Of a DNA stretch of 64,000 nt, positions 1,651 through 18,558 are shown piece after piece. Both the position numbers and the translations under genes were made by a program. The notes beneath the pieces are model-generated. The model had not been told where the DNA came from. It searched no databases and was given only the letters and a program-made list of their open reading frames with translations. Each line of letters begins with the position of its first letter. Position 1 is the stretch's first letter. Source of the stretch: Escherichia coli. GTDB lineage: Bacteria; Pseudomonadota; Gammaproteobacteria; Enterobacterales; Enterobacteriaceae. Where the stretch lies: NCBI RefSeq assembly GCF_024223415.1, contig NZ_CP100502.1; one strand, given 5' to 3'.

Positions 1651-2099
1651 CTGGCTGGATGTTCTCAGTACACGCTCGTAAGCGGCCCTGACGGCCCGCT
1701 AACGCGGAGATACGCCCCGACTTCGGGTAAACCCTCGTCGGGACCACTCCGACCGCGCACAGAAACTGTCTCATGGCTGAAAGCGGGTATGGCTTAGCAG
1801 GGCTGGGGATGGGTAAGGTGAAATCTATCAATCAGTACCGGCTGACGCCGGGCTTCGGCGGTTTTACTCCGGTATCACATGTAACCACAGCGTGCCGCCT
1901 TCCATGCCGCTGGCGCGGCATATCCTGGACGTATAGGAAATTGAAAAACCAGACGATACCGCTGTCCACGCCTTATGCCACGTGAGCCTTTCTGCTTTTC
2001 CCTCCACTCCGGTGGTTTCTCTCTCTGCATGGTCGATTTTTATACCGTAACAGGCTGTTTTTTATACCTGCACCGATTCCCGGGCACACTTAGCCTGTG

Positions 2100-2900
2100 T
2101 CAGGCCGGCATATACCTCAGCAGACTGATATCCCGCGCGTTTTTCTTCAGCCCTGATACATTCAGCCCCGCAATGGCCCGGCGGTATACCATCCGGCCGC
2201 CACACAGCACGCATTCGAACGGGTCACGACTCAGGAACTGTTTCACCATTTGTGCATAGCACACTTTCGCCACTGGTTCCGGCTTATCCATCCCCAGAGC
2301 ACGGTACACCTGCGGCAGCTTCTCTCCACACACCCGGTTGGCAAGGAACCCGAAGTATCTCACCATCTTAAAAAACTTCTCCGGGATGTGCTGTTTCAGC
2401 CTCGCGACCAGCTCCCGCTGTGTCAGCGTTTCCGTCGCCGTTTCTCCCGTTTTGTGGTCCAGGTAACGGAAGCTCAGACTCGCTCCTCCGTTGTAATGCG
2501 CCAGCCGGGAAGCCGCTATTGGTGGCTTCTTCAGATAACGACCCAGGTAGCGTGCCGTATTCCGCCCTCCGGCTGTCTTCTTCGACATGTACACATGCCA
2601 GTATTTTCCGCCGGCTTTCAGCACCAGGCTTCTCCACTGTGATTCCGTCGTGATATGTGACAACGATTCCGGCATCGCCAGACCTTCTGACCACGCTTTC
2701 AGAAGCAGCTGCCGCATATTCCACATCCACCGCGAACGCATCGCGTCTTTCAGGAAGCTCAGCTTTTTCCAGTGTCCGTGTTTATTCAGACCTCCGCAGG
2801 TCACTGACACATGCACATGCGGATGCCAGTTGAGACGACGGCCATACGTATGGATGGCGCAGAAGATACCGGGTTCCAGACCCCGTTTCCGGGCTGCATA
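2100..2900 (-). pseudogene. tnpA: IS91-family (rolling-circle, ISCR-like) transposase, C-terminal segment of a gene split by the Tn2-bounded insertion
   Basis: Reading frame continues upstream of the listed ORF to the insertion point; contains HTYGRRLNWHPHVH (HUH) and ARYLGRY (tyrosine) motifs; joins in frame with the 14248-14660 segment across the target duplication. Confidence 0.8.
2896..2900. repeat. 5-bp target site duplication GCATA (left copy)
   Basis: Identical pentamer directly flanks the outer ends of the two Tn2-type terminal inverted repeats (2896-2900 and 14248-14252). Confidence 0.8.
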
Positions 2901-2965
2901 GGGGTCTGACGCTCAGTGGAACGAAAACTCACGTTAAGGGATTTTGGTCATGAGATTATCAAAAA
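2901..2965. mobile_element. Tn2/Tn3 IRR-end fragment (38-bp inverted repeat at 2901-2938 plus 27 bp of adjacent Tn2 sequence)
   Basis: GGGGTCTGACGCTCAGTGGAACGAAAACTCACGTTAAG followed by GGATTTTGGTCATGAGATTATCAAAAAGG, identical to the bla-proximal end at 9298-9362. Confidence 0.85.
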
Positions 2966-3003
2966 GGGGAGCCCGCAGAATTCGGAAAAAATCGTACGCT
3001 AAG
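2966..3003. repeat. 38-bp terminal inverted repeat of a Tn21-subgroup transposon (Tn1721/Tn501-like, contains GAATTC)
   Basis: GGGGAGCCCGCAGAATTCGGAAAAAATCGTACGCTAAG overlapping the tnpA stop codon, as in Tn21-family elements. Confidence 0.7.
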
Positions 3004-5965
3004 GTTTTCCGGGCATCCGTAAGGGCCGAAACTTCCCGTCTTCCAGTCTGCGGCTCTGCCGCCAGACGTAATCGCCGGTTAGGTTGATGTGCTCCCAGCC
3101 CAGCGGCGACAGGAATTGCAGCAGCTCGCCGTCCACCGGCTTGCCGGCCTCGACCAACCCCTGGGTGGCGCGTTCCAGGTACACCGTGTTCCACAGCACG
3201 ATAGCCGCCGTCACCAGGTTGAGGCCGCTGGCCCGGTAGCGCTGCTGCTCGAAGCTCCGATCCCTGATTTCCCCAAGGCGGTTGAAGAACACCGCCCTGG
3301 CCAGCGAGTTGCGCGCCTCACCTTTGTTCAGGCCGGCATGCACGCGGCGGCGCAGTTCAACACTTTGCAGCCAGTCCAGGATGAACAGCGTGCGCTCGAT
3401 CCGGCCCAGCTCGCGCAGGGCCACGGCCAGTCCGTTCTGGCGCGGGTAGCTGCCGAGCTTGCGCAGCATCAGCGAGGCGGTGACGGTGCCCTGCTTGATC
3501 GAGCTGGCCAGGCGCAGGATGTCGTCCCAGTGGGCACGCACGTGCTTGATGTTCAGGGTGCCGCCGATCAGCGGGCGCAACGTCGGGTAGGCTTGCACGC
3601 CCTGCGGCACGTACAGCTTGGTTTCGCCGAGGTCGCGGATGCGCGGCGCGAAGCGGAAGCCTAGCAGGTGCATCAGGGCAAAGACGTGATCGGTGAAGCC
3701 GGCCGTGTCGGTGTAGTGCTCCTCGATCCGCAGGTCGGACTCGTGGTACAGCAGGCCGTCGAGCACATAGGTGGAATCGCGGACGCCGACATTCACCACG
3801 CGGGTGCTGAACGGCGCGTACTGGTCGGAGATATGGGTATAGAACAGCCGTCCCGGCTCGCTACCGTACTTCGGGTTGACGTGCCCGGTGCTCTCGCCCC
3901 GGCCACCCGCGCGGAAGCGCTGGCCATCGGAGGATGAGGTCGTGCCGTCGCCCCAGTGGGCGGCAAAGGCGTGGCGATACTGGTGGTTGACCAGCTCGGC
4001 CAAGGCCGCCGAATAGGTTTCGTCGCGGATGTGCCAGGCTTGCAGCCAGGACAGCTTGGCGTAGGTCAGGCCGGGGCTCGACTCGGCCATCTTGGTCAGC
4101 CCGAGGTTGATCGCATCACCGAGGATTGCGGACAGCAGCAACGTCCTGTCTTTGGCCTCGGCCCCGTCCTTCAAGTGGGTGAAGTGGCGGCTGAAGCCCG
4201 TCCAGTCGTCCACGTCCATCAGCAGTTCGGTGATCTTGATGCGCGGCAGTAACTGGCTGGTTTGGTCGATCAGCGCCTGCGCCCGATCCGGCACCGCCGC
4301 ATCCAGCGGGGTGATTTTCAGCCCTGACTCGGTGAGGATGGCATCGGGCAGCTCGTTGTCCTTGGCCAGGCGGGTGACGGTGGCCAACTGCTCGTCCAGC
4401 AGCTGCAAACGCTCTTCCAGGTACTGGTCGCTGTTCGGGTTGATCGCCAGGGGCAGGGCCTGCTCGCGCTTGAGTGCGGCGAACTTCTCGGCCGGCAGCA
4501 GGTAGTCGTCGAAGTCGCGGAACTGCCGCGAGCCCTTGACCCAGATGTCGCCGGAGCGCAGGGCGTTCTTCAGCTCGGACAGGGCGCAGATTTCGTAGAA
4601 TTTCCGGTCGAGGCCTTCCGGGGTGATCACCAGCGGCTTCCAGCGCGGCTTGATGAAGGCCGTGGGTGCATCGGCCGGCACCTTGCGCAGGTTGTCGGCG
4701 TTCATCTCACGCAGGGTCTGCACGGCTGCCAGCACGCCTTGCGCGGCCGGCGCGGCGCGCAGTTCCAGCACCTCCAGCAAGGCCGGCGTGTAACGGCGCA
4801 GGGTGGCGAAGTTCTCGCCGACCAGGTGCAGGTGGTCGAAGCCTTCCGGCCGGGCCAGCAGCTCGGCCTCGCTGACGCTCTCGGTGAACTCGTCCCAGGG
4901 AATCACCGCCTCGATGGCGGCATAGGGGTCGCTGCCGCTTTCCTTCGCTTCCAGCAGCGCCTGGCCGATCCTGGAGTACAGGCGCACCTTGTCGTTGATC
5001 GCCTTGCCCTGCTTCTGGAACTGCTGCTGATGCTTGTGCTTCGCGCCGCTGAACAGCTTGACCAGGATGCGGTCATGCAGATCGACCAGCTCATCGATCA
5101 CGGTCGCGGTGCTCTCCAGCACCACGGCGGCCAGGGTCGCGTAGCGGCGCTGCGGCTCGAACTTACCGAGGTCTTTGGGCGTCATCTGCCCACCCTCGCG
5201 GGCCAGCTTGAGCAGGCGGTTCTGGTGGATGTGCCGGCCCAGGCCTTCGGGCAAGTCCACCAACTGAAATGTCTTCAGCCGCTCGATGTGTTCCAGCATG
5301 TGCCGAGAGTTGGGTTTCAGCGGTGCCTGGCGCAGCCAGGTCAACCAGGTGATGCTGCTGCCGGCCTTGAGCTTCAACAGCTCGTCCAGCTTGGCCCGAT
5401 GCGAGTCCGTGAGTGGTTCGACCAGGGCGCGGTAGACCCGCCGATTGGCTCGCGCAATGGCTTCCGAGCAGGCCCGGTCAATCACGCTCAGCGCCGGCAG
5501 GATGCGTCGTTTCTGCCGTAGGCTCTCCAGGGCCTGACCGGCCAGCAGCAAGCCTTTGTCGGTCTGCTGGGCCAGCTCGGTTAGCTCGCGCACCAGGGCG
5601 CGGAAGTCGGACAGGCCGAACGGGGCCAGTTGCAGGTAGGTGCGCAGTTCCTGGGCATGCTCGCGACGGGTCACGTCGCGCTCGCCGTACTTTGCCCAGC
5701 TCGCCGGCTCGGCCTGGACTTGCTTCGCCACCCACAGGATGACCGGCTCGGGCAGCTCGCTGTCGGTTCCCAGCGCGTAACCGGGGTAGCGCAGCAGGCA
5801 GAGCTGCACGGCGAAGCCGAGGCGGTTGGCGTCGCCGCGTCGCTGGCGGATCAGCGACAGGTCGGAGTCGTTGAAGGTGTAGTAGCGGATCAGGTCATCC
5901 TGGCTTTCCGGCAGCGCAAGCAGGGTGTCCCGCTCCGTGGCCGAGAGGATCAAGCGACGCGGCAT
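2999..5965 (-). CDS. tnpA: Tn3-family transposase, Tn21 subgroup
   Basis: 988-aa ORF, recognised as Tn21/Tn1721-type TnpA by recall; immediately upstream of tnpR and res. Confidence 0.9.
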
Positions 5966-5968
5966 GTG

Positions 5969-6529
5969 TCAGTCGTCCGTGCGGAGGTACTGGTAGAGGG
6001 TTTCCCGGCTGATGTTGAACTCGCGGGCAAGCTGCGCCTTGGGCTCGCCGGCCGTCGCTCGCTGCCGCAGGGTAGCAGCCTGCTCATCGGACAGGGCTTT
6101 CTTGCGGCCCCGGTACGCGCCACGCTGCTTGGCCAAGGCGATGCCCTCACGCTGCCGCTCGCGGATCAGGGCGCGCTCGAACTCAGCGAAGGCCCCCATC
6201 ACCGACAGCATCAGGTTGGCCATCGGCGAGTCCTCGCCAGTGAACACCAGGCCCTCCTTCAGGAACTCGATGCGCACGCCGCGCTGAGTCAGCTTCTGTA
6301 CCAAGCGACGCAGGTCATCGAGGTTGCGGGCCAGCCGATCCATGCTGTGCACCACCACTGTATCGCCTTCGCGGACGAAGCTCAGCAGCGCTTCGAGCTG
6401 GGGGCGCTGGGTGTCCTTGCCCGATGCCTTGTCGGTGAACACCTTGCTCACCTGGGTTTGTTCCAGCTGGCGTTCCGGGTTCTGGTCAAAGCTGCTGACC
6501 CGGACGTAGCCGATGCGGTGCCCCTGCAC
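5969..6529 (-). CDS. tnpR: Serine resolvase of Tn21-subgroup transposon
   Basis: 186-aa ORF beginning MQGHRIGYVRVSS with catalytic serine motif and C-terminal HTH. Confidence 0.9.
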   Translation of the reverse strand: MQGHRIGYVRVSSFDQNPERQLEQTQVSKVFTDKASGKDTQRPQLEALLSFVREGDTVVVHSMDRLARNLDDLRRLVQKLTQRGVRIEFLKEGLVFTGEDSPMANLMLSVMGAFAEFERALIRERQREGIALAKQRGAYRGRKKALSDEQAATLRQRATAGEPKAQLAREFNISRETLYQYLRTDD

Positions 6530-6704
6530 GATGTCTCCTTGGTTGAAGGCGGCTTAAGTGCACTTTCTGTTCCGTTGTGCCTCAAAGCCCATTTCTGTCA
6601 GGCTGAAATCTATAACCTTCGCGGGCATGTGTCAAAAAATGGGAAAGCAGACTCTATTCTGACGAAGCGGCGCGGCCCTGCCTGACATCAAGTTAGGGTA
6701 TGCC
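6530..6704. promoter_or_regulatory. res (resolution) site region of the Tn21-like transposon
   Basis: Position between tnpR start and tnpM, as in Tn21; subsites not mapped. Confidence 0.5.
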
Positions 6705-7055
6705 TCAACCTGACGGCGGCGAATCACAAGCGTCCGGTTTGACGCTGGTTTCGGTCGCAGTGCTGGCCCGCGCCTGGAAGCGCTGATAGCACTCCAGCCC
6801 GCAGAAATGCTCCACGTACTCGGCCCCTTCCGGCGTGAAGGCGGCATCGAGCGGGATTTCCTTGCAGCACACGCAGCAACTGGTGCTCGGTTCATTGGCG
6901 TTCATGGTGGTGTTCCTCCATTGGTTGACGAAGCCGACGAAGGCCGCCGCCGGCATCGGCCTGGCGAACAGGAAACCCTGCACCGTGTCGCAACCCGCCT
7001 GCCGCAACCACGCAAGGCAGTCGGGTGTTTCCACACCCTCGGCTACCACCTCCAT
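6705..7055 (-). CDS. tnpM: TnpM (urf2M) of Tn21, start codon abutting integron IRi
   Basis: 116-aa C-terminal part of listed ORF beginning [21 protein letters not shown]; start lies directly against IRi at 7056. Confidence 0.6.
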
Positions 7056-7080
7056 TGTCGTTTTCAGAAGACGGCTGCAC
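7056..7080. repeat. IRi, 25-bp inverted repeat marking the intI1 end of a class 1 integron
   Basis: TGTCGTTTTCAGAAGACGGCTGCAC. Confidence 0.8.
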
Positions 7081-7257
7081 TGAACGTCAGAAGCCGACTG
7101 CACTATAGCAGCGGAGGGGTTGGATCCATCAGGCAACGACGGGCTGCTGCCGGCCATCAGCGGACGCAGGGAGGACTTTCCGCAACCGGCCGTTCGATGC
7201 GGCACCGATGGCCTTCGCGCAGGGGTAGTGAATCCGCCAGGATTGACTTGCGCTGCC

Positions 7258-8271
7258 CTACCTCTCACTAGTGAGGGGCGGCAGCGCATCAAGCGGTGAG
7301 CGCACTCCGGCACCGCCAACTTTCAGCACATGCGTGTAAATCATCGTCGTAGAGACGTCGGAATGGCCGAGCAGATCCTGCACGGTTCGAATGTCGTAAC
7401 CGCTGCGGAGCAAGGCCGTCGCGAACGAGTGGCGGAGGGTGTGCGGTGTGGCGGGCTTCGTGATGCCTGCTTGTTCTACGGCACGTTTGAAGGCGCGCTG
7501 AAAGGTCTGGTCATACATGTGATGGCGACGCACGACACCGCTCCGTGGATCGGTCGAATGCGTGTGCTGCGCAAAAACCCAGAACCACGGCCAGGAATGC
7601 CCGGCGCGCGGATACTTCCGCTCAAGGGCGTCGGGAAGCGCAACGCCGCTGCGGCCCTCGGCCTGGTCCTTCAGCCACCATGCCCGTGCACGCGACAGCT
7701 GCTCGCGCAGGCTGGGTGCCAAGCTCTCGGGTAACATCAAGGCCCGATCCTTGGAGCCCTTGCCCTCCCGCACGATGATCGTGCCGTGATCGAAATCCAG
7801 ATCCTTGACCCGCAGTTGCAAACCCTCACTGATCCGCATGCCCGTTCCATACAGAAGCTGGGCGAACAAACGATGCTCGCCTTCCAGAAAACCGAGGATG
7901 CGAACCACTTCATCCGGGGTCAGCACCACCGGCAAGCGCCGCGACGGCCGAGGTCTTCCGATCTCCTGAAGCCAGGGCAGATCCGTGCACAGCACCTTGC
8001 CGTAGAAGAACAGCAAGGCCGCCAATGCCTGACGATGCGTGGAGACCGAAACCTTGCGCTCGTTCGCCAGCCAGGACAGAAATGCCTCGACTTCGCTGCT
8101 GCCCAAGGTTGCCGGGTGACGCACACCGTGGAAACGGATGAAGGCACGAACCCAGTGGACATAAGCCTGTTCGGTTCGTAAGCTGTAATGCAAGTAGCGT
8201 ATGCGCTCACGCAACTGGTCCAGAACCTTGACCGAACGCAGCGGTGGTAACGGCGCAGTGGCGGTTTTCAT
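7258..8271 (-). CDS. intI1: Class 1 integron integrase
   Basis: 337-aa ORF beginning [49 protein letters not shown]. Confidence 0.95.
8156..8184 (+). promoter_or_regulatory. Integron cassette promoter Pc, weak variant (-35 TGGACA, 17-bp spacer, -10 TAAGCT); P2 inactive (14-bp spacer between TTGTTA and TACAGT)
   Basis: Hexamers read directly inside the intI1 coding region; no GGG insertion between TTGTTA and TACAGT near 8290. Confidence 0.7.
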
Positions 8272-8289
8272 GGCTTGTTATGACTGTTT

Positions 8290-8410
8290 TTTTGTACAGT
8301 CTATGCCTCGGGCATCCAAGCAGCAAGCGCGTTACGCCGTGGGTCGATGTTTGATGTTATGGAGCAGCAACGATGTTACGCAGCAGGGCAGTCGCCCTAA
8401 AACAAAGTTA
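8290..8410. other. attI1 recombination site region
   Basis: Sequence ending CCCTAAAACAAAGTTA at the cassette boundary upstream of dfrA1. Confidence 0.6.
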
Positions 8411-8427
8411 ACCTCTGAGGAAGAATT

Positions 8428-8901
8428 GTGAAACTATCACTAATGGTAGCTATATCGAAGAATGGAGTTATCGGGAATGGCCCTGATATTCCATGGAGTG
8501 CCAAAGGTGAACAGCTCCTGTTTAAAGCTATTACCTATAACCAATGGCTGTTGGTTGGACGCAAGACTTTTGAATCAATGGGAGCATTACCCAACCGAAA
8601 GTATGCGGTCGTAACACGTTCAAGTTTTACATCTGACAATGAGAACGTAGTGATCTTTCCATCAATTAAAGATGCTTTAACCAACCTAAAGAAAATAACG
8701 GATCATGTCATTGTTTCAGGTGGTGGGGAGATATACAAAAGCCTGATCGATCAAGTAGATACACTACATATATCTACAATAGACATCGAGCCGGAAGGTG
8801 ATGTTTACTTTCCTGAAATCCCCAGCAATTTTAGGCCAGTTTTTACCCAAGACTTCGCCTCTAACATAAATTATAGTTACCAAATCTGGCAAAAGGGTTA
8901 A
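8428..8901 (+). CDS. dfrA1: Trimethoprim-resistant dihydrofolate reductase DfrA1 (gene cassette)
   Basis: 157-aa ORF with GTG start, [52 protein letters not shown]. Confidence 0.9.
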
Positions 8902-8993
8902 CAAGTGGCAGCAACGGATTCGCAAACCTGTCACGCCTTTTGTACCAAAAGCCGCGCCAGGTTTGCGATCCGCTGTGCCAGGCGTTAAACATC
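8902..8993. other. attC (59-be) of the dfrA1 cassette
   Basis: Between dfrA1 stop and aadA1 start, ending GTTAAAC core. Confidence 0.5.
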
Positions 8994-9297
8994 ATGAGGG
9001 AAGCGGTGATCGCCGAAGTATCGACTCAACTATCAGAGGTAGTTGGCGTCATCGAGCGCCATCTCGAACCGACGTTGCTGGCCGTACATTTGTACGGCTC
9101 CGCAGTGGATGGCGGCCTGAAGCCACACAGTGATATTGATTTGCTGGTTACGGTGACCGTAAGGCTTGATGAAACAACGCGGCGAGCTTTGATCAACGAC
9201 CTTTTGGAAACTTCGGCTTCCCCTGGAGAGAGCGAGATTCTCCGCGCTGTAGAAGTCACCATTGTTGTGCACGACGACATCATTCCGTGGCGTTATC
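8994..9297 (+). pseudogene. aadA1: aadA1 streptomycin/spectinomycin adenylyltransferase, 3'-truncated (about 101 of 263 codons) by Tn2 IRR
   Basis: Begins MREAVIAEVSTQLSEVVGVIERHLEPTLLAVHLYGSAVDGGLKPHSDIDLL; reading frame runs straight into the Tn2 inverted repeat at 9298. Confidence 0.85.
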
Positions 9298-9335
9298 GGG
9301 GTCTGACGCTCAGTGGAACGAAAACTCACGTTAAG
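9298..9335. repeat. Tn2/Tn3 38-bp terminal inverted repeat (IRR, bla end)
   Basis: GGGGTCTGACGCTCAGTGGAACGAAAACTCACGTTAAG. Confidence 0.9.
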
Positions 9336-9444
9336 GGATTTTGGTCATGAGATTATCAAAAAGGATCTTCACCTAGATCCTTTTAAATTAAAAATGAAGT
9401 TTTAAATCAATCTAAAGTATATATGAGTAAACTTGGTCTGACAG

Positions 9445-10317
<873 letters not shown>

Positions 10318-10487
10318 TCAATATTATTGAAGCATTTACCAGGGTTATTGTCTCATGAGCGGATACATATTTGAATGTATTTAGAAAAATAAACAAATAG
10401 GGGTTCCGCGCACATTTCCCCGAAAAGTGCCACCTGACGTCTAAGAAACCATTATTATCATGACATTAACCTATAAAAATAGGCGTA

Positions 10488-11208
<721 letters not shown>

Positions 11209-14200
11209 ATGCCCGTTGACTTTCTGACCACTGAGCAGACTGAAAGCTATGGCAGATTCACCGGTGAACCGGATGAGCTTCAGCTGGCACGATATTTTCA
11301 CCTTGATGAAGCAGACAAGGAATTTATCGGAAAAAGCAGAGGTGATCACAACCGTCTGGGCATTGCCCTGCAAATTGGATGTGTCCGTTTTCTGGGCACC
11401 TTCCTCACCGATATGAATCATATTCCTTCCGGCGTCCGGCATTTTACCGCCAGACAGCTCGGGATTCGTGATATCACCGTTCTTGCAGAATACGGTCAGA
11501 GGGAAAATACCCGCCGTGAGCATGCAGCGCTGATACGTCAGCACTATCAGTATCGTGAATTTGCCTGGCCCTGGACATTTCGCCTTACCCGTCTTTTATA
11601 TACCCGGAGCTGGATAAGCAACGAACGTCCTGGCCTGCTTTTCGATCTGGCGACAGGGTGGCTTATGCAACATCGTATTATTCTCCCCGGAGCCACTACG
11701 CTGACCCGGTTGATTTCAGAGGTAAGGGAAAAGGCGACGTTGCGCCTGTGGAACAAACTGGCACTGATACCGTCAGCCGAACAGCGTTCACAGCTGGAGA
11801 TGCTGCTGGGGCCAACTGATTGCAGCCGCCTGTCTTTACTGGAATCACTGAAAAAGGGCCCTGTGACCATCAGTGGTCCGGCGTTTAATGAAGCAATTGA
11901 ACGCTGGAAAACTCTGAACGATTTTGGCCTGCATGCTGAAAACCTGAGTACACTCCCGGCTGTGCGCCTGAAAAATCTCGCACGTTATGCTGGTATGACT
12001 TCGGTGTTCAATATTGCCAGGATGTCACCGCAGAAAAGGATGGCGGTTCTGGTTGCCTTTGTCCTTGCATGGGAAACGCTGGCGCTGGATGATGCATTGG
12101 ACGTTCTGGACGCCATGCTGGCCGTTATCATCCGTGACGCCAGAAAGATTGGGCAGAAAAAACGGCTCCGCTCGCTGAAGGATCTGGATAAATCTGCATT
12201 GGCGCTCGCCAGCGCATGTTCGTACCTGCTGAAAGAAGAAACACCGGACGAATCGATTCGTGCTGAGGTGTTCAGCTACATCCCAAGGCAAAAGCTGGCT
12301 GAAATCATCACGCTTGTCCGTGAAATTGCCCGGCCCTCAGACGATAATTTTCATGAAGAAATGGTGGAGCAGTACGGGCGCGTTCGTCGTTTCCTGCCCC
12401 ATCTGCTGAATACCGTTAAATTTTCATCCGCACCTGCCGGGGTTACCACTCTGAATGCCTGTGACTACCTCAGCCGGGAGTTCAGCTCACGGCGGCAGTT
12501 TTTTGACGACGCACCAACGGAAATTATCAGTCGGTCATGGAAACGGCTGGTGATTAACAAGGAAAAACATATCACCCGCAGGGGATACACGCTCTGCTTT
12601 CTCAGTAAACTGCAGGATAGTCTGAGGCGGAGGGATGTCTACGTTACCGGCAGTAACCGGTGGGGAGATCCTCGTGCAAGATTACTACAGGGTGCTGACT
12701 GGCAGGCAAACCGGATTAAGGTTTATCGTTCTTTGGGGCACCCGACAGACCCGCAGGAAGCAATAAAATCTCTGGGTCATCAGCTTGATAGTCGTTACAG
12801 ACAGGTTGCTGCACGTCTTTGCGAAAATGAGGCTGTCGAACTCGATGTTTCTGGCCCGAAGCCCCGGTTGACAATTTCTCCCCTCGCCAGTCTTGATGAG
12901 CCGGACAGTCTGAAACGACTGAGCAAAATGATCAGTGATCTACTCCCTCCGGTGGATTTAACGGAGTTGCTGCTCGAAATTAACGCCCATACCGGATTTG
13001 CTGATGAGTTTTTCCATGCTAGTGAAGCCAGTGCCAGAGTTGATGATCTGCCCGTCAGCATCAGCGCCGTGCTGATGGCTGAAGCCTGCAATATCGGTCT
13101 GGAACCACTGATCAGATCAAATGTTCCTGCACTGACCCGACACCGGCTGAACTGGACAAAAGCGAACTATCTGCGGGCTGAAACTATCACCAGCGCTAAT
13201 GCCAGACTGGTTGATTTTCAGGCAACGCTGCCACTGGCACAGATATGGGGTGGAGGAGAAGTGGCATCTGCAGATGGAATGCGCTTTGTTACGCCAGTCA
13301 GAACAATCAATGCCGGACCGAACCGCAAATACTTTGGTAATAACAGAGGGATCACCTGGTACAACTTTGTGTCCGATCAGTATTCCGGCTTTCATGGCAT
13401 CGTTATACCGGGGACGCTGAGGGACTCTATCTTTGTGCTGGAAGGTCTTCTGGAACAGGAGACCGGGCTGAATCCAACCGAAATTATGACCGATACAGCA
13501 GGTGCCAGCGAACTTGTCTTTGGCCTTTTCTGGCTGCTGGGATACCAGTTTTCTCCACGCCTGGCTGATGCCGGTGCTTCGGTTTTCTGGCGAATGGACC
13601 ATGATGCCGACTATGGCGTGCTGAATGATATTGCCAGAGGGCAATCAGATCCCCGAAAAATAGTCCTTCAGTGGGACGAAATGATCCGGACCGCTGGCTC
13701 CCTGAAGCTGGGCAAAGTACAGGTTTCAGTGCTGGTCCGTTCATTGCTGAAAAGTGAACGTCCTTCCGGACTGACTCAGGCAATCATTGAAGTGGGGCGC
13801 ATCAACAAAACGCTGTATCTGCTTAATTATATTGATGATGAAGATTACCGCCGGCGCATTCTGACCCAGCTTAATCGGGGAGAAAGTCGCCATGCCGTTG
13901 CCAGAGCCATCTGTCACGGTCAAAAAGGTGAGATAAGAAAACGATATACCGACGGTCAGGAAGATCAACTGGGCACACTGGGGCTGGTCACTAACGCCGT
14001 CGTGTTATGGAACACTATTTATATGCAGGCAGCCCTGGATCATCTCCGGGCGCAGGGTGAAACACTGAATGATGAAGATATCGCACGCCTCTCCCCGCTT
14101 TGCCACGGACATATCAATATGCTCGGCCATTATTCCTTCACGCTGGCAGAACTGGTGACCAAAGGACATCTGAGACCATTAAAAGAGGCGTCAGAGGCAG

Positions 14201-14214
14201 AAAACGTTGCTTAA
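11209..14214 (+). CDS. tnpA: Tn2/Tn3 transposase
   Basis: About 1001 aa from MPVDFLTTEQTESYGRFTGEPDEL; stop codon lies inside the terminal repeat. Confidence 0.95.
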   Translation: MPVDFLTTEQTESYGRFTGEPDELQLARYFHLDEADKEFIGKSRGDHNRLGIALQIGCVRFLGTFLTDMNHIPSGVRHFTARQLGIRDITVLAEYGQRENTRREHAALIRQHYQYREFAWPWTFRLTRLLYTRSWISNERPGLLFDLATGWLMQHRIILPGATTLTRLISEVREKATLRLWNKLALIPSAEQRSQLEMLLGPTDCSRLSLLESLKKGPVTISGPAFNEAIERWKTLNDFGLHAENLSTLPAVRLKNLARYAGMTSVFNIARMSPQKRMAVLVAFVLAWETLALDDALDVLDAMLAVIIRDARKIGQKKRLRSLKDLDKSALALASACSYLLKEETPDESIRAEVFSYIPRQKLAEIITLVREIARPSDDNFHEEMVEQYGRVRRFLPHLLNTVKFSSAPAGVTTLNACDYLSREFSSRRQFFDDAPTEIISRSWKRLVINKEKHITRRGYTLCFLSKLQDSLRRRDVYVTGSNRWGDPRARLLQGADWQANRIKVYRSLGHPTDPQEAIKSLGHQLDSRYRQVAARLCENEAVELDVSGPKPRLTISPLASLDEPDSLKRLSKMISDLLPPVDLTELLLEINAHTGFADEFFHASEASARVDDLPVSISAVLMAEACNIGLEPLIRSNVPALTRHRLNWTKANYLRAETITSANARLVDFQATLPLAQIWGGGEVASADGMRFVTPVRTINAGPNRKYFGNNRGITWYNFVSDQYSGFHGIVIPGTLRDSIFVLEGLLEQETGLNPTEIMTDTAGASELVFGLFWLLGYQFSPRLADAGASVFWRMDHDADYGVLNDIARGQSDPRKIVLQWDEMIRTAGSLKLGKVQVSVLVRSLLKSERPSGLTQAIIEVGRINKTLYLLNYIDDEDYRRRILTQLNRGESRHAVARAICHGQKGEIRKRYTDGQEDQLGTLGLVTNAVVLWNTIYMQAALDHLRAQGETLNDEDIARLSPLCHGHINMLGHYSFTLAELVTKGHLRPLKEASEAENVA

Positions 14215-14247
14215 CGTGAGTTTTCGTTCCACTGAGCGTCAGACCCC
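14210..14247. repeat. Tn2/Tn3 38-bp terminal inverted repeat (IRL, tnpA end)
   Basis: CTTAACGTGAGTTTTCGTTCCACTGAGCGTCAGACCCC. Confidence 0.9.
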
Positions 14248-14252
14248 GCATA
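14248..14252. repeat. 5-bp target site duplication GCATA (right copy)
   Basis: Matches 2896-2900. Confidence 0.8.
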
Positions 14253-14660
14253 CAGCAGATTCTCCACCGCCAGACGGCACACGTCATTCAGCAGCCAGCG
14301 GTTGCTTTCGAACACCGGCCACAGCGTGTCCGGCAGGGTGAAGACCAGGTGCACCCAGTCGCAGTCAGGAAGACGATTCAGCTGTGTCGCTATCCACAGG
14401 TCTGTGGCCTTTTTTCCGCAGGACGGGCAGGCACGGCTGCCACATGAGTTAGTGACGTATCTGACGTGGGGGCACTCAGGTTTATCGCAGTTGTATTCCT
14501 TCACACCCAGTATCCGCGTGCCGCAGGCCAGCATTTTTGTGACAGCCTCAACCTCGATATCGCGCAGGCCGCCCGCATCCAGGAAGGATGTCCAGCACTG
14601 GTTGGCTGTGAACAGGCGTTTCAGCGGTCGGGGCTGAAAATCACCACCACTTCGGGTCAT
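14248..14660 (-). pseudogene. tnpA: IS91-family transposase, N-terminal zinc-binding segment of the gene split by the Tn2-bounded insertion
   Basis: CPHVRYVTNSCGSRACPSCGKK zinc-ribbon-like motif; frame joins 2100-2900 across the target duplication. Confidence 0.75.
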
Positions 14661-14913
14661 CCGCCTTCATCTCCGCTTCAGTTTCGTATAAATCAAAACG
14701 ACGGCAGGTATGGCAGAACGTGACGTATTCGTACGGTGAATCCGGGTACATTTTGTGGAAGGTTTCCCAGAAACAGACCGTACAGGAGGGATGACCGGCG
14801 ATAAAGTCTGTAAATACAGACTGATAAGGGTGATTATTGGCCCTGGCGACGGCTTTCAGAACCTCTTTCACCATTCTGGTGTGGACTTTCTGGTGCTCCA
14901 GGTTGTGTGACAT
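14641..14913 (-). CDS. Cys/His-rich ORF upstream of and overlapping the IS91-family tnpA start in another frame (upstream accessory ORF or frameshifted N-terminus)
   Basis: 90-aa ORF with HPSCTVCFWETFHKMY...CHTCRRF; overlaps tnpA by 20 nt in a different frame. Confidence 0.35.
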   Translation of the reverse strand: MSHNLEHQKVHTRMVKEVLKAVARANNHPYQSVFTDFIAGHPSCTVCFWETFHKMYPDSPYEYVTFCHTCRRFDLYETEAEMKADDPKWW

Positions 14914-15127
14914 GGGAACTCATTCTGGATGGTTACTCTGAAAGCTCATATTCTGCCACACCACGATTTGCAGCCGCCAGGCTGCCGTGGTTCATGGTTA
15001 GGTTTTGCGATAGTATATTTACGAGCTGATTAAGGTTTGGCATAGTGTGGTTCGTAAGAAAAATTACTATTATGCCTTGTCCTTAGTCAGCTTTTTTGTT
15101 TTTTGTCGTGTACAGAGAGAAGCCCCC

Positions 15128-15943
15128 ATGAATAAATCGCTCATCATTTTCGGCATCGTCAACATAACCTCGGACAGTTTCTCCGATGGAGGCCGGTATC
15201 TGGCGCCAGACGCAGCCATTGCGCAGGCGCGTAAGCTGATGGCCGAGGGGGCAGATGTGATCGACCTCGGTCCGGCATCCAGCAATCCCGACGCCGCGCC
15301 TGTTTCGTCCGACACAGAAATCGCGCGTATCGCGCCGGTGCTGGACGCGCTCAAGGCAGATGGCATTCCCGTCTCGCTCGACAGTTATCAACCCGCGACG
15401 CAAGCCTATGCCTTGTCGCGTGGTGTGGCCTATCTCAATGATATTCGCGGTTTTCCAGACGCTGCGTTCTATCCGCAATTGGCGAAATCATCTGCCAAAC
15501 TCGTCGTTATGCATTCGGTGCAAGACGGGCAGGCAGATCGGCGCGAGGCACCCGCTGGCGACATCATGGATCACATTGCGGCGTTCTTTGACGCGCGCAT
15601 CGCGGCGCTGACGGGTGCCGGTATCAAACGCAACCGCCTTGTCCTTGATCCCGGCATGGGGTTTTTTCTGGGGGCTGCTCCCGAAACCTCGCTCTCGGTG
15701 CTGGCGCGGTTCGATGAATTGCGGCTGCGCTTCGATTTGCCGGTGCTTCTGTCTGTTTCGCGCAAATCCTTTCTGCGCGCGCTCACAGGCCGTGGTCCGG
15801 GGGATGTCGGGGCCGCGACACTCGCTGCAGAGCTTGCCGCCGCCGCAGGTGGAGCTGACTTCATCCGCACACACGAGCCGCGCCCCTTGCGCGACGGGCT
15901 GGCGGTATTGGCGGCGCTGAAAGAAACCGCAAGAATTCGTTAA
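15128..15943 (+). CDS. sul2: Sulfonamide-resistant dihydropteroate synthase Sul2
   Basis: 271 aa from MNKSLIIFGIVNITSDSFSDGGRYLAPDAAIAQARKLMAEGADVIDLG. Confidence 0.95.
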   Translation: MNKSLIIFGIVNITSDSFSDGGRYLAPDAAIAQARKLMAEGADVIDLGPASSNPDAAPVSSDTEIARIAPVLDALKADGIPVSLDSYQPATQAYALSRGVAYLNDIRGFPDAAFYPQLAKSSAKLVVMHSVQDGQADRREAPAGDIMDHIAAFFDARIAALTGAGIKRNRLVLDPGMGFFLGAAPETSLSVLARFDELRLRFDLPVLLSVSRKSFLRALTGRGPGDVGAATLAAELAAAAGGADFIRTHEPRPLRDGLAVLAALKETARIR

Positions 15944-16029
15944 CTGCACATTCGGGATATTTCTCTATATTCGCGGTTCAGCAGGCATGTCCCCTTTGAG
16001 GGCGACCCGACGACAGGATAATCGACCTT

Positions 16030-16275
16030 ATGGTGCGCAAATATTTCGGCACAGACGGTATTCGTGGCAAAGCCAACGAAGGCGCGATGACGGCGGAAAC
16101 CGCCTTGCGCGTCGGCATGGCGGCTGGCCGTGTCTTTCGTCGCGGTGACCACCGCCATCGTGTCGTGATCGGCAAGGATACGCGCCTGTCGGGCTATATG
16201 CTTGAACCCGCGCTCACAGCCGGTTTCACCTCGATGGGCATGGACGTATTCCTTTTTGGCCCGCTGCCGACAACG
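16030..16275 (+). pseudogene. glmM: Truncated phosphoglucosamine mutase fragment, the usual sul2-associated relic
   Basis: [36 protein letters not shown]... then loss of similarity. Confidence 0.8.
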
Positions 16276-16507
16276 TATAGGAAGAATAAACGCCCTTTTC
16301 ACCCAAGTCCAACAGCTTTGGACCGCAGTTGACTCTTTCGACACCCCTGCGATGCAACCCAATCCGGCTGACGGGGAGCCAGCAACGCTGAAAATTTACC
16401 CTCCTCTTTCCCACTAGCGGCTCCTTTTCCGACAACCAGCACGGCGGATCCCTGCCGCGGCGCTGTGAACGCAGCATTTTGATTGGTATCGTTGGCCTTC
16501 AGGCTCG

Positions 16508-17644
16508 TCAGTCAAACAGACCCAGGAGCAGCTCAGCCGGTGGCGCCCGGCTTTCGGGTAACGCCCTGGTCCCGCTGGTTTCGGCTTTGTGCTTCAGGTG
16601 ATCAAGGATCTGCTTGATCACTATAGGGTCTTCAATGCAGGCGATGACTTTCATGGCGCCGCCGCAGCCGCTGCAGGTCTCGATGTCGATATTGAAAACA
16701 CGCTTGAGCCGTTGCGCCCATGTCATCGACGCTCGCCGTTGTGCTGGTGTTGCCGGTTCATCAGCCACCCTGACCTTGTTGCCCCTGCCCCGTTTTGCCG
16801 GCGTGACCAACGCCCGGTGCCGACTGTTGGGTGCGAACACCCCGTGGAAGCGGGTTAGGTTGACTCTGGGCTTCGGTACCAGGGCGGCCAGCCTTGCAAT
16901 GAAATCCAATGGTTCGAAAATGACGTGCGTGGTGCCGTCCCGGTACGGCGTCTTGAGCTGGTAGCGCACGTTGCCGCCTCGTGTTAACGACAGCCGCTTC
17001 TCGGATACCGCCGGGCGGCTGATGTACCGGCACAGCCGTTCGAGCTTCTTGCGTTCATCGGCCCTGGCCGCCACGCCGGCGTGCAGGCTGGACCCGGCTA
17101 CCTTGCCAATCCCGTCACCGAACGGATCACCACTGGTCGGCAGAGTTTGCAAAGTGAACACCTTTCGCCCCGCCTGTGAACCGACAGCGATACGGTAAGT
17201 GATCGAGTGCCCCAGCAGGGGTGTCATCGGGTCGTCATCCACCGCATCCGAGGCCAGATAGCTGTTTTCGACATCCCGTTCCAGCAGGCCTTGCCGTTCC
17301 AGATAGCGACCCACCCGGTGGGCGATGGTGTGCGTCAGCTGGGTGAGCTCTGGGGTGGTCGGCGCCTTGACCCAGCGGAAACGCGCTGAGCCGTGGGATT
17401 GCTCGACATACACACCGTCGAGAAACAGCATGTGGAAGTGAACATTCAGATTGAGCGCCGATCCAAAACGCTGGATCAGGGTGACCGCGCCCGTCTTGGC
17501 CACTTGGTGGGTATGGCCCGCTTTCTTGACCAGGTGCGTGGCAATGACGCGGTAAACGATGCCCAGCACCCACCCCATGATCTCGGGCCGGCTGGCAAAC
17601 AGGAAACGCAGCTGAAACGGGAAGCTCAACACCCACTGACGCAT
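16508..17644 (-). CDS. IS91-family ISCR2-like transposase, probably lacking the N-terminal zinc-binding region
   Basis: 378-aa ORF with HFH (HUH) and YxxxY motifs and ISCR-type C-terminus IDIETCSGCGGAMKVIACIEDPIVIKQILDHL; adjacent to sul2 and truncated glmM. Confidence 0.7.
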   Translation of the reverse strand: MRQWVLSFPFQLRFLFASRPEIMGWVLGIVYRVIATHLVKKAGHTHQVAKTGAVTLIQRFGSALNLNVHFHMLFLDGVYVEQSHGSARFRWVKAPTTPELTQLTHTIAHRVGRYLERQGLLERDVENSYLASDAVDDDPMTPLLGHSITYRIAVGSQAGRKVFTLQTLPTSGDPFGDGIGKVAGSSLHAGVAARADERKKLERLCRYISRPAVSEKRLSLTRGGNVRYQLKTPYRDGTTHVIFEPLDFIARLAALVPKPRVNLTRFHGVFAPNSRHRALVTPAKRGRGNKVRVADEPATPAQRRASMTWAQRLKRVFNIDIETCSGCGGAMKVIACIEDPIVIKQILDHLKHKAETSGTRALPESRAPPAELLLGLFD

Positions 17645-17971
17645 GGGTTGTTCGTCCTGGACGGCGAACCCGGCAAAGCTCCTGTAACATTGCTTCTTCC
17701 TGTTTTGTTAGCGTGACTGTCACGCTAGCGCCTTCCTCTTTGAGTCGCGCGCGGCGCCGGGCCTGGCGAATACGGGCTTGTTCACGCTGTCGGTCATTCA
17801 TATTTTTCCTCCACGTGACTGTCACGTTGAATTAAACTGGGCATTACCCCTGCGGGGCCGTTCTGCCGTGCTGCGCATCGAGCCGCTACGCGTCTCGCCC
17901 CTTCGGGCGGCGGCCACTAATGCCTCCGGCCTGCGGCCTCCGCGCTTCGCTTGTGACGATATCTGAATCGT

Positions 17972-17988
17972 TATATACTGTGTATATA
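17972..17988. promoter_or_regulatory. Palindromic operator-like site TATATAC-N3-GTATATA upstream of the toxin-antitoxin operon
   Basis: Perfect 7-bp inverted arms about 25 bp upstream of the antitoxin start. Confidence 0.4.
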
Positions 17989-18010
17989 CGTAGTAATGAC
18001 GAGGTGATAA

Positions 18011-18280
18011 ATGGCACAGGTTAATATGAGTTTAAGAATCGACGCTGAACTGAAGGATGCTTTTATGGCCGCTGCAAAAAGCATGGACCGTAATGGCTCT
18101 CAGTTAATTCGGGATTTTATGCGCCAGACCGTTGAACGGCAGCATAATACCTGGTTCCGTGACCAGGTTGAGGCAGGACGTCAGCAACTCGAGCGCGGCG
18201 ATGTGCTTCCCCATGACATGGTCGAATCTTCCGCTGCTGCATGGCGGGATGAAATGAGCAGGAAGGTTGCCGGTAAATGA
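18011..18280 (+). CDS. Antitoxin, ParD/RelB-like (YacA-like of IncI plasmids)
   Basis: 89-aa ORF with ribbon-helix-helix-like N-terminus; 4-nt overlap with downstream toxin gene. Confidence 0.7.
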   Translation: MAQVNMSLRIDAELKDAFMAAAKSMDRNGSQLIRDFMRQTVERQHNTWFRDQVEAGRQQLERGDVLPHDMVESSAAAWRDEMSRKVAGK

Positions 18281-18558
18281 TGGAGATATTCTGGACCATG
18301 CTGGCCAGCCAGGACAGGAAGCGCATTCGTAAGTACATTGCGGAGCAGAACCTGATGGCCGCCATTGAACTGGACGAACGGATTGGTTATTCAGCCAGCA
18401 GCCTGGCCGGGCAGCCGTATAAAGGCCGCAACGGTCGTGTGGAAGGTACCCGGGAACTGGTTATTCACCCGCATTTTGTTCTGGTTTATGAGGTCGACAG
18501 CCAGTGGGGAAAAGTGTATATCCTGCGCGTGTTGCATACTGCACAGAAGTGGCCATAG
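18277..18558 (+). CDS. Toxin, RelE/ParE superfamily (YacB-like)
   Basis: 93-aa ORF translationally coupled to the antitoxin; typical RelE/ParE size and composition. Confidence 0.7.
   Translation: MMEIFWTMLASQDRKRIRKYIAEQNLMAAIELDERIGYSASSLAGQPYKGRNGRVEGTRELVIHPHFVLVYEVDSQWGKVYILRVLHTAQKWP

Follow-up and report, generated by a model that had tools for sequence, protein, structure and literature searches.

The sulfonamide resistance gene sul2 of an Escherichia coli IncI1 plasmid as the probable cargo of one-ended transposition by an IS1294-type insertion sequence

We analyzed a 64,000-nucleotide (nt) stretch of Escherichia coli DNA (the window; contig NZ_CP100502.1 of assembly GCF_024223415.1) in which sul2 and a truncated glmM gene are flanked by two IS91-family transposase genes. 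Our results indicate that this region is, in all probability, one transposition unit of the left element, an IS1294-type insertion sequence (IS) moving by one-ended rolling-circle transposition, and not the outcome of two IS coming to flank sul2 by chance. This reading is favored because the block begins at the oriIS end of the element, lacks a target duplication and ends beyond terIS at a tetranucleotide of the GTTC/CTTG type. From left to right, it consists of the IS1294-type element, a remnant of an IS4-family element, sul2, truncated glmM, truncated ISCR2 and a 305-bp fragment of IncN plasmid backbone (Table 1). One-ended transposition has been reported at 1–14% for IS1294 and IS1294b and at 1–10% for IS91 (PMC13181058). 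The parts of the block and the mechanism are already known and the identical block is present in dozens of sequenced plasmids; only orf90, a small open reading frame (ORF) of the left element, is new to annotation libraries. In our incomplete coverage of the literature, we found no description of the block as a one-ended unit of an IS1294-type element.

Both boundaries of the block were observed directly by comparison with plasmids lacking it. Without an 11,347-bp transposon located in its left part, the block (1929–17953) comprises 4,673 bp and is inserted precisely into the IncI1 backbone between repZ and yacA, with neither duplication nor loss of bases. Many IncI1 plasmids match the reconstructed empty site (...CATATCCTGG/TGACGATATC..., i.e., ...CCTGG/TGACG...) over 797 nt with 100% identity, and the backbone is uninterrupted at this position in R64 and in many more closely related IncI1 plasmids. 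At the right boundary, the IncN fragment ends in CTTG (17950–17953) exactly where the block ends, and the IncI1 backbone resumes at 17954. The IncI1 plasmid pRHB41-C23_3 of Escherichia fergusonii contains the segment 14100–18100 with 100% identity and at the same coordinates, and several IncI1 plasmids of E. coli are likewise 100% identical over this segment.

The left transposase gene had been predicted from the window to be interrupted and to possess a zinc-ribbon N-terminus and an HPHVH motif, and all three features were recovered. In related plasmids such as pESBL-283 (NC_024978), which match the window from 14248 on, the gene is uninterrupted; positions 1–2900 and 14248–18521 of the window are contiguous in pESBL-283, with an overlap of 5 bp. 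Joining the two halves minus one copy of the overlapping GCATA restores an intact tnpA ORF of 402 amino acids (aa), which in the window is split after codon 136. The N-terminal part matches the zinc-binding domain of IS91-family transposases, and HPHVH occupies residues 162–166 of the restored ORF (2811–2825). The original prediction had missed that the other half of the gene lies 11 kb away, beyond the 11.3-kb transposon. The transposase also matches the NCBIfam model NF033538 (IS91 family transposase) with 311.9 bits (cut-off 125).

The complete element is 1,713 bp long and comprises oriIS, tnpA, orf90 and terIS. Its ends were fixed from four independent copies, two of which are arranged in tandem in pCFSAN027350, one is located on a Shigella virulence plasmid, and one is an IS1294-type copy on an IncI1 plasmid. 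The oriIS end starts with ACGTATAGGAAATTG at position 1929, and terIS, which contains the published terIS of IS1294 (TTGCAGCCGCCAGGCTGCCGTG; PMC7864471), ends in ...GCTGCCGTGGTTC at position 14993. All copies compared are identical through the GTTC of terIS and diverge beyond it; the hairpin just before this GTTC has a predicted folding energy of -12.5 kcal/mol (z -4.7). The element thus shows the properties of the IS91 family. Its transposase is of the HUH/two-tyrosine (Y2) type and has a zinc-binding domain at the N-terminus; its two ends, oriIS and terIS, differ from each other and are not inverted repeats, the terIS hairpin lying beside the cleavage tetranucleotide; and exact empty sites in IncI1 and IncX4 plasmids show that it inserts without duplicating the target, with oriIS placed next to a tetranucleotide of the GTTC/CTTG type. 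The tetranucleotide at the oriIS end of other copies is GTTC, GTTC, CTTG or GTAC. In pCFSAN027350 (locus L007, 788–4213), the two tandem copies are oriented head to tail and the GTTC of terIS abuts the oriIS of the next copy, as expected for a rolling-circle element. Together with the three insertion sites and the variable far ends described below, these genomic footprints suggest that the element transposes by a rolling-circle mechanism.

With respect to its closest known relatives, the oriIS and terIS sequences of the left element are identical to those of IS1294 and IS1294b, which likewise generate no target duplication, insert at GTTC/CTTG-type targets and mobilize DNA located past terIS. 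The common 1,688-bp IS1294-type copy encodes a TnpA protein with 96.7% aa identity (residues 8–402), the tnpA genes being 94.5% identical at the nt level, whereas the approximately 330 bp between terIS and tnpA are unrelated to those of the left element, which has orf90 there. For copies of the same element or isoform, ISfinder practice is about ≥ 95% nt and ≥ 98% aa identity, and the values found here lie below both. Since the 330-bp region is unrelated and encodes orf90, we refer to the left element as IS1294-type. The transposase of IS91 itself is only about 34% identical to the left TnpA. At least 5,000 PLSDB records match the IS1294-type transposase, 1,875 of them with at least 95% identity among the matches listed, and the element is also found alone in other contexts.

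The prediction that two different IS91-family transposase genes, both on the minus strand, lie on either side of sul2 and truncated glmM was borne out. On alignment of the full-length proteins the two share 24% aa identity and hence are not the same element; the left one is recognized by the IS91 equivalog model and the right one by the ISCR clade Ia model. At the DNA level, there is no similarity between the left element and ISCR2 beyond 10–11 bases at the oriIS tip. A composite transposon built from the two genes was therefore rejected. Despite the low identity of the transposases, the 11-base tip ACGTATAGGAA is common to the oriIS ends of the IS1294-type element (1929–1939) and ISCR2 (16274–16284).

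The right gene, which had been described as ISCR2-like with an HFH motif, indeed belongs to ISCR2 (ISVsa3). Its product contains the HFH motif and a Y2_Tnp domain (E 4.2e-36) and matches the ISCR clade Ia model of NCBIfam with E 2.4e-149 and 498 bits, a score below the cut-off of 925; the DNA is 100% identical to copies annotated as ISVsa3, and truncated glmM and sul2 adjoin the oriIS end, which starts with the tip ACGTATAGGAA at 16274. The boundary between glmM and ISCR2 was placed with the help of a second ISCR2 copy in the IncI1 plasmid NZ_CP083487 (locus L013). Taking a complete ISCR2 as a 1,491-bp ORF with approximately 120 bp upstream (terIS) and 240 bp downstream (oriIS), the copy in the window is 5′-truncated, a point missed by the original prediction: the C-terminal 381 codons (16508–17653; ORF 16508–17644) are left, which corresponds to 1,146 bp of the ORF, and end at an internal GTTC (17650–17653), whereas the first 116 codons (348 bp) including the zinc-binding region and the upstream end of about 120 bp are absent. 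The distance from the oriIS tip to the stop codon is about 234 bp, as in the standard arrangement of ISCR2.

A transfer of sul2 by rolling-circle read-through of ISCR2, with the left element being incidental, would agree with the classical association of ISCR2 with sul2 and truncated glmM (PMC2725981; PMC9376610), an arrangement that has been described before (PMC2725981). However, the oriIS end of ISCR2 faces sul2, and replication of ISCR2 therefore proceeds away from this gene (PMC2725981), the copy in the window has lost terIS and the start of its gene, and the block is bounded by the oriIS of the IS1294-type element and the CTTG of the IncN fragment instead of by ISCR2 ends. Such a transfer is exceedingly improbable. 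An integrase route via GIsul2 was likewise rejected. The CR2-sul2 unit of GIsul2 has the same head-to-head order of sul2, truncated glmM and ISCR2, with truncated glmM at the oriIS end, and is delimited by segments of 304 bp upstream of sul2 and of 119 bp upstream of rcr2, both of which terminate in an att core site. In the window, the conserved 304 bp ending in attR are replaced by the IS4-family remnant from 15117 leftwards, the usual sul2 contexts share sequence only from 15118 on, and the upstream end of rcr2 is deleted. Thus, both att-bearing ends of the unit are missing.

The sul2 gene was scored as 100% identical by AMRFinder in the record that matches 14100–18100 at 100%. The Psychrobacter plasmid pVan23-1 has the start of the IS4-family transposase gene at the same GTTCATGG, with sul2 following. 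This plasmid (from water, China; locus L017, 3451–3661) carries the IS4-family element intact at its junction with sul2, and in addition an mph(E)/mph(G)-type macrolide phosphotransferase gene; related IS4-type ends with 77–83% identity are present in Moraxella and Acinetobacter plasmids. A search for a sigma-70 promoter of sul2 within the IS4 remnant gave one weak match, no more than expected by chance.

The same element was found joined to sul2 at further sites. The IncX4 plasmid pC214, which carries mcr-1, contains the element and sul2 followed by complete ISCR2, lysR and floR; this block of 6,940 bp is inserted after CTTG and ends in GTTC, and its exact empty site is present in p1493-1. 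On an IncF plasmid, the oriIS end is located after GTTC at a third site, the far end being cut by IS26. The junction of terIS with sul2 was found in about 70 PLSDB records. At the same site as in the window, NZ_CP083487 (IncI1, Taiwan) carries a longer block (4861–13817) consisting of the element, sul2, complete ISCR2, lysR, floR, a DUF3363 gene, truncated ISCR2 and the IncN fragment. These comparisons bear on the alternative that a module of sul2, truncated glmM and truncated ISCR2 was resident in the IncI1 plasmid and that the IS1294-type element arrived later beside it by two-ended insertion. Elements of this type are common on such plasmids and, as stated above, also occur alone, which would fit independent arrivals. 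Against this, the IncI1 sequence adjoining the oriIS end continues, in plasmids with the empty site, directly into the DNA found past the far end of the module. Moreover, had the element inserted later, part of the module (the remainder of the IS4-family element) should be present on the oriIS side. In addition, the same terIS-sul2 junction occurs at three unrelated locations, and oriIS forms the block boundary in each of them. Independent arrivals therefore appear very improbable, and the entire arrangement, which the original prediction had not recognized as a unit, is most likely the product of one-ended transposition of the left element.

Based on these data, we propose the following course of events. 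The IS1294-type element would first have inserted at a GTTC within the IS4-family element just upstream of sul2, which at that stage would already have been part of the sul2-truncated glmM-ISCR2 array. In agreement with this, pVan23-1 reads GTTC/ATGG where the window reads terIS-GTTC/ATGG, which is the footprint expected for the original insertion of the element at GTTC. Each copy would start at the fixed oriIS beside a target tetranucleotide; when termination at terIS fails, copying would continue through sul2, truncated glmM and ISCR2 and stop at a later GTTC or CTTG, and the whole stretch would be inserted at a new site without target duplication. The IncN fragment overlaps ISCR2 by TGTTC, and this junction suggests an earlier one-ended event with an IncN intermediate, in which the GTTC within ISCR2 would have served as the end of the unit and insertion would have taken place behind a GTTC of an IncN plasmid. 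A subsequent event would have read 300 bp further into the IncN DNA, ended at CTTG and landed at CTGG between repZ and yacA of the IncI1 plasmid, giving the 4,673-bp block. The 11.3-kb resistance transposon would have entered tnpA later. ISCR2 would be a truncated passenger, and sul2 would be fixed in place unless transposase is supplied in trans. The five insertions in this history would have used GTTC (three times), CTTG and CTGG as targets, and stand-alone copies are found at GTTC or GTAC. The three variable far ends observed, i.e., the GTTC inside ISCR2, the CTTG of the IncN fragment and the GTTC of pC214, all lie at GTTC or CTTG, for which the chance is about 2/256 each. The block resembles the IS1294-blaCMY-2-blc-sugE units and differs from them in its cargo of sul2, truncated glmM and truncated ISCR2 and in its IncI1 target CTGG.

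The junction between ISCR2 and the IncN fragment might alternatively have arisen in an IncN plasmid by deletion or recombination at the TGTTC common to both partners, leaving a single one-ended event from IncN to IncI1. The 5-bp microhomology would be in line with such an origin, as would the fact that the IncN intermediate was not observed in PLSDB, complete E. coli genomes or JGI metagenome contigs. On the other hand, the junction lies at GTTC in both partners, as expected for a unit ending at a substitute GTTC and inserted after a target GTTC, and the final one-ended event would still be required. We consider this shorter history unlikely.

Several findings weigh against the proposed one-ended mechanism or its details. 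The predicted IncN intermediate was detected neither in PLSDB or complete E. coli genomes with a chimeric query for its right junction nor in JGI metagenome contigs with the exact pattern of its left junction, for which the two-step model predicts GGAATAGGCTGTTC/ACGTATAGG; as it was not found, the intermediate and the two-step order of events are what we infer. The IncI1 target CTGG is not among the published targets (GTTC, CTTG and GTCC). Between terIS and the end of the block, 14 GTTC and 22 CTTG sites were passed over, which led us to reject the tetranucleotide alone as the stop signal, and the substitute ends possess no significant hairpin (z -0.8 to +0.5, compared to -4.7 at terIS). Neither the tetranucleotide nor a hairpin thus accounts for the choice of the stopping point. 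Finally, the short form of the block could be derived by later deletion from a longer form like that of NZ_CP083487, which may alternatively have arisen by insertion into the short form.

The transposon that splits tnpA carries tnpA and tnpR of the TnAs1 family, intI1, dfrA1, a truncated aadA, blaTEM-1 and tnpR and tnpA of Tn2, according to the annotation of an identical record. Position 14248, where the similarity to pESBL-283 resumes, is the first base past its 38-bp inverted repeat (14210–14247), and the listed ORF 14211–14660 runs into this repeat over its last 12 codons. A TnAs1-family transposon that contains a class 1 integron (intI1-dfrA1-aadA) is nested within it, 66 bp inward from the right end of Tn2. 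The truncated aadA (listed as aadA15, 9006–9350) is fused directly to Tn2 sequence downstream of blaTEM-1; therefore, the 3′ segment of the integron and the other TnAs1-type end are missing. With tnpA split by this transposon and ISCR2 truncated, both IS91-family transposases of the window plasmid are predicted to be inactive. At the other end of the block, a minus-strand ORF of 196 aa (17235–17825) is a chimera whose first 50 or so codons come from a hypothetical IncN gene upstream of stbC and which continues out of frame through what is left of ISCR2; it is therefore not a real gene. Immediately to the right of the block, the IncI1 backbone contains the yacA/yacB toxin-antitoxin pair of the RelB/ParE type (18011–18558). 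In pESBL-283, ISEcp1-blaCTX-M-1 is inserted just beyond yacA/yacB; this insertion is absent from the window.

Table 1. Position of the features of the sul2 block and its surroundings in the window.
Feature	Position	Strand	Evidence or remark
Insertion target: tetranucleotide CTGG of the IncI1 backbone, immediately preceding oriIS	1925–1928	+	Empty-site comparison
oriIS-proximal 972 bp of the IS1294-type element	1929–2900	-	100% identical to the uninterrupted element in pESBL-283
oriIS, ACGTATAGGAAATTGAAAAAC	1929–1949	-	Equals the published oriIS of IS1294 (PMC7864471)
3′ part of tnpA, codons 137–402 and stop codon	2100–2900	-	Joined to the 5′ half in the ORF reconstruction
5-bp target duplication GCATA	2896–2900 (left copy), 14248–14252 (right copy)		5-bp overlap compared to the uninterrupted locus
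Transposon bounded by 38-bp Tn2/Tn3 inverted repeats, 11,347 bp	2901–14247		Repeats at 2901–2938 and 14210–14247
5′ part of tnpA, codons 1–136, zinc-binding N-terminus	14248–14660	-	Pfam Zn_Tnp_IS91, E 3.6e-23; ORF reconstruction
orf90, conserved accessory ORF of 90 aa overlapping the tnpA start by 20 nt	14641–14913	-	Layout kept in relatives; dN/dS
terIS: subterminal hairpin, then cleavage tetranucleotide GTTC (14990–14993), end of the element	14960–14993	-	Copies diverge past GTTC
End remnant of an IS4-family IS, 124 bp, directly upstream of sul2	14994–15117		98% identical to Psychrobacter plasmid pVan23-1
sul2, sulfonamide-resistant dihydropteroate synthase	15128–15943	+	Pterin_bind, E 7e-62
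glmM truncated by the oriIS end of ISCR2, with roughly 80 initial codons left	16030–16273	+	PGM_PMM_I, profile positions 1–80 only
5′-truncated ISCR2 (ISVsa3)	16274–17653	-	Y2_Tnp and ISCR clade Ia; 100% DNA identity to ISVsa3-annotated copies up to 17653
IncN backbone fragment, region upstream of stbC, 305 bp	17649–17953		100% identical to pSa1423TC-59K and many others

The N-terminal region of the left transposase gene had been seen to be split between two overlapping frames, which was taken to suggest either a frameshift or an upstream accessory ORF. The latter part of this suggestion held, whereas the frameshift was rejected, since the two-ORF layout is kept in relatives, the small ORF is under purifying selection and fused homologues were not found. 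The small ORF, termed orf90, and tnpA overlap at 14641–14660, tnpA being in the +1 frame, and the annotation of both is the same in many independent plasmids. Relatives with a small ORF of 71 and 61% identity likewise have a separate ORF that overlaps a gene of about 406 aa with Zn_Tnp_IS91 and Y2_Tnp domains by 17–20 nt in the same relative frame, each ORF having its own stop and start codons. The ratio of nonsynonymous to synonymous substitution rates (dN/dS) between orf90 and the 71% relative is about 0.13, indicating purifying selection; for the 61% relative, synonymous sites are saturated (proportion of synonymous differences 0.82, of nonsynonymous differences 0.26).

A sequencing or assembly error or a programmed frameshift within one longer transposase gene would also produce two frames overlapping by 20 nt, and fused orf121-tnpA isoforms are known for IS91. 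Nevertheless, the same two ORFs appear in many independent assemblies and remain separate in the 61–71% relatives, tnpA has an ATG of its own with the zinc domain beginning only at residue 19, all but one of the 78 family members described below are 39–174 aa long and hence not fused with a transposase, and some stand free beside Rep_1 genes. A frameshift is thus hardly conceivable. Because the layout is kept in the 61–71% relatives, dN/dS is about 0.13, no fused homologues were found and the annotation recurs independently many times, orf90 is, judged from these sequence comparisons, a genuine accessory gene that belongs to the element. Co-translation with tnpA is probable.

No family match for orf90 was obtained in Pfam, NCBIfam or PHROGs. 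A full HMMER scan of 1.8 billion representatives gave 78 hits, almost all of 40–110 aa, with the signature FW...P..Y.V..CxxC.KF.L, in which F48, W49, C67xxC70 and F73 are nearly invariant. The first CxxC of orf90 (C43, C46) was rejected as a conserved motif, since only C67xxC70 is conserved in the family. The AlphaFold model is confident (pLDDT 87.5) and predicts three helices and a beta-hairpin. Of eleven divergent homologues sampled for their genomic context, three are located directly upstream of IS91-family transposase genes, four lie beside or overlap Rep_1 genes on contigs of 2–3 kb, one is in a phage-like context, and the remaining three contexts were uninformative. Rep_1 proteins (PF01446) are rolling-circle plasmid initiators; the loci with divergent relatives of orf90 beside Rep_1 genes or IS91-family transposase genes include L020, L021 and L026–L029. 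The genes of L026 recur in L027 in permuted order, pointing to a circular replicon of about 2.2 kb. Genes of the orf90 family adjoin two unrelated HUH enzyme families, IS91-family TnpA and Rep_1, and in this respect resemble those of small accessory proteins of rolling-circle (HUH) replicons.

The organization of orf90 and tnpA resembles that of orf121 and tnpA of IS91, where a small ORF is also located immediately upstream of the gene for the HUH-Y2 transposase and overlaps it, by 1 nt instead of 20 nt (PMC13181058). Orf121 reduces transposition and improves recognition of terIS, and IS91 was stated to be the sole member of its family with such an upstream ORF (Fauconnier et al., 2026; PMC13181058). 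Given the conserved upstream orf90, this statement does not hold for the present IS1294-type group. The idea that orf90 is a homologue of Orf121 was rejected (BLASTP E 0.025, 25% identity over 48 residues), and no Orf121-like protein was among the 78 HMMER hits of the orf90 family. By analogy to Orf121, orf90 may modulate transposition or its termination, and a role in rolling-circle initiation or termination appears plausible. More tentatively, orf90 might represent an undescribed family of about 80-aa proteins serving as general accessory factors of HUH rolling-circle enzymes, which may control initiation or termination at hairpin ends, much like Orf121, to which they are unrelated, in the case of IS91.

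In a 2026 survey of IncI1 blaCTX-M-1 plasmids, the region was called "fragmented IS91", its pieces of 1,209, 1,137 and 273 bp falling short of the 1,830 bp of IS91 (PMC12868207). These pieces are the intact-length IS1294-type tnpA, the truncated ISCR2 ORF and orf90; they are not pieces of IS91 itself, whose transposase shares only about 34% identity with the left one. The block would explain the presence of sul2 at the repZ-yacA site of a widespread IncI1 blaCTX-M-1 plasmid lineage and also its occurrence in IncX4 and IncF plasmids, sul2 very likely having travelled as IS1294-type cargo rather than by means of ISCR2 or GIsul2. Successive one-ended events would be recorded in the IncN fragment and in the junctions at GTTC/CTTG. 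The relatives beside Rep_1 initiators make orf90 a candidate regulator of rolling-circle termination; if this were true, the orf90 family would influence how often IS1294-type elements over-run terIS and thereby capture resistance genes such as sul2 and blaCMY-2.

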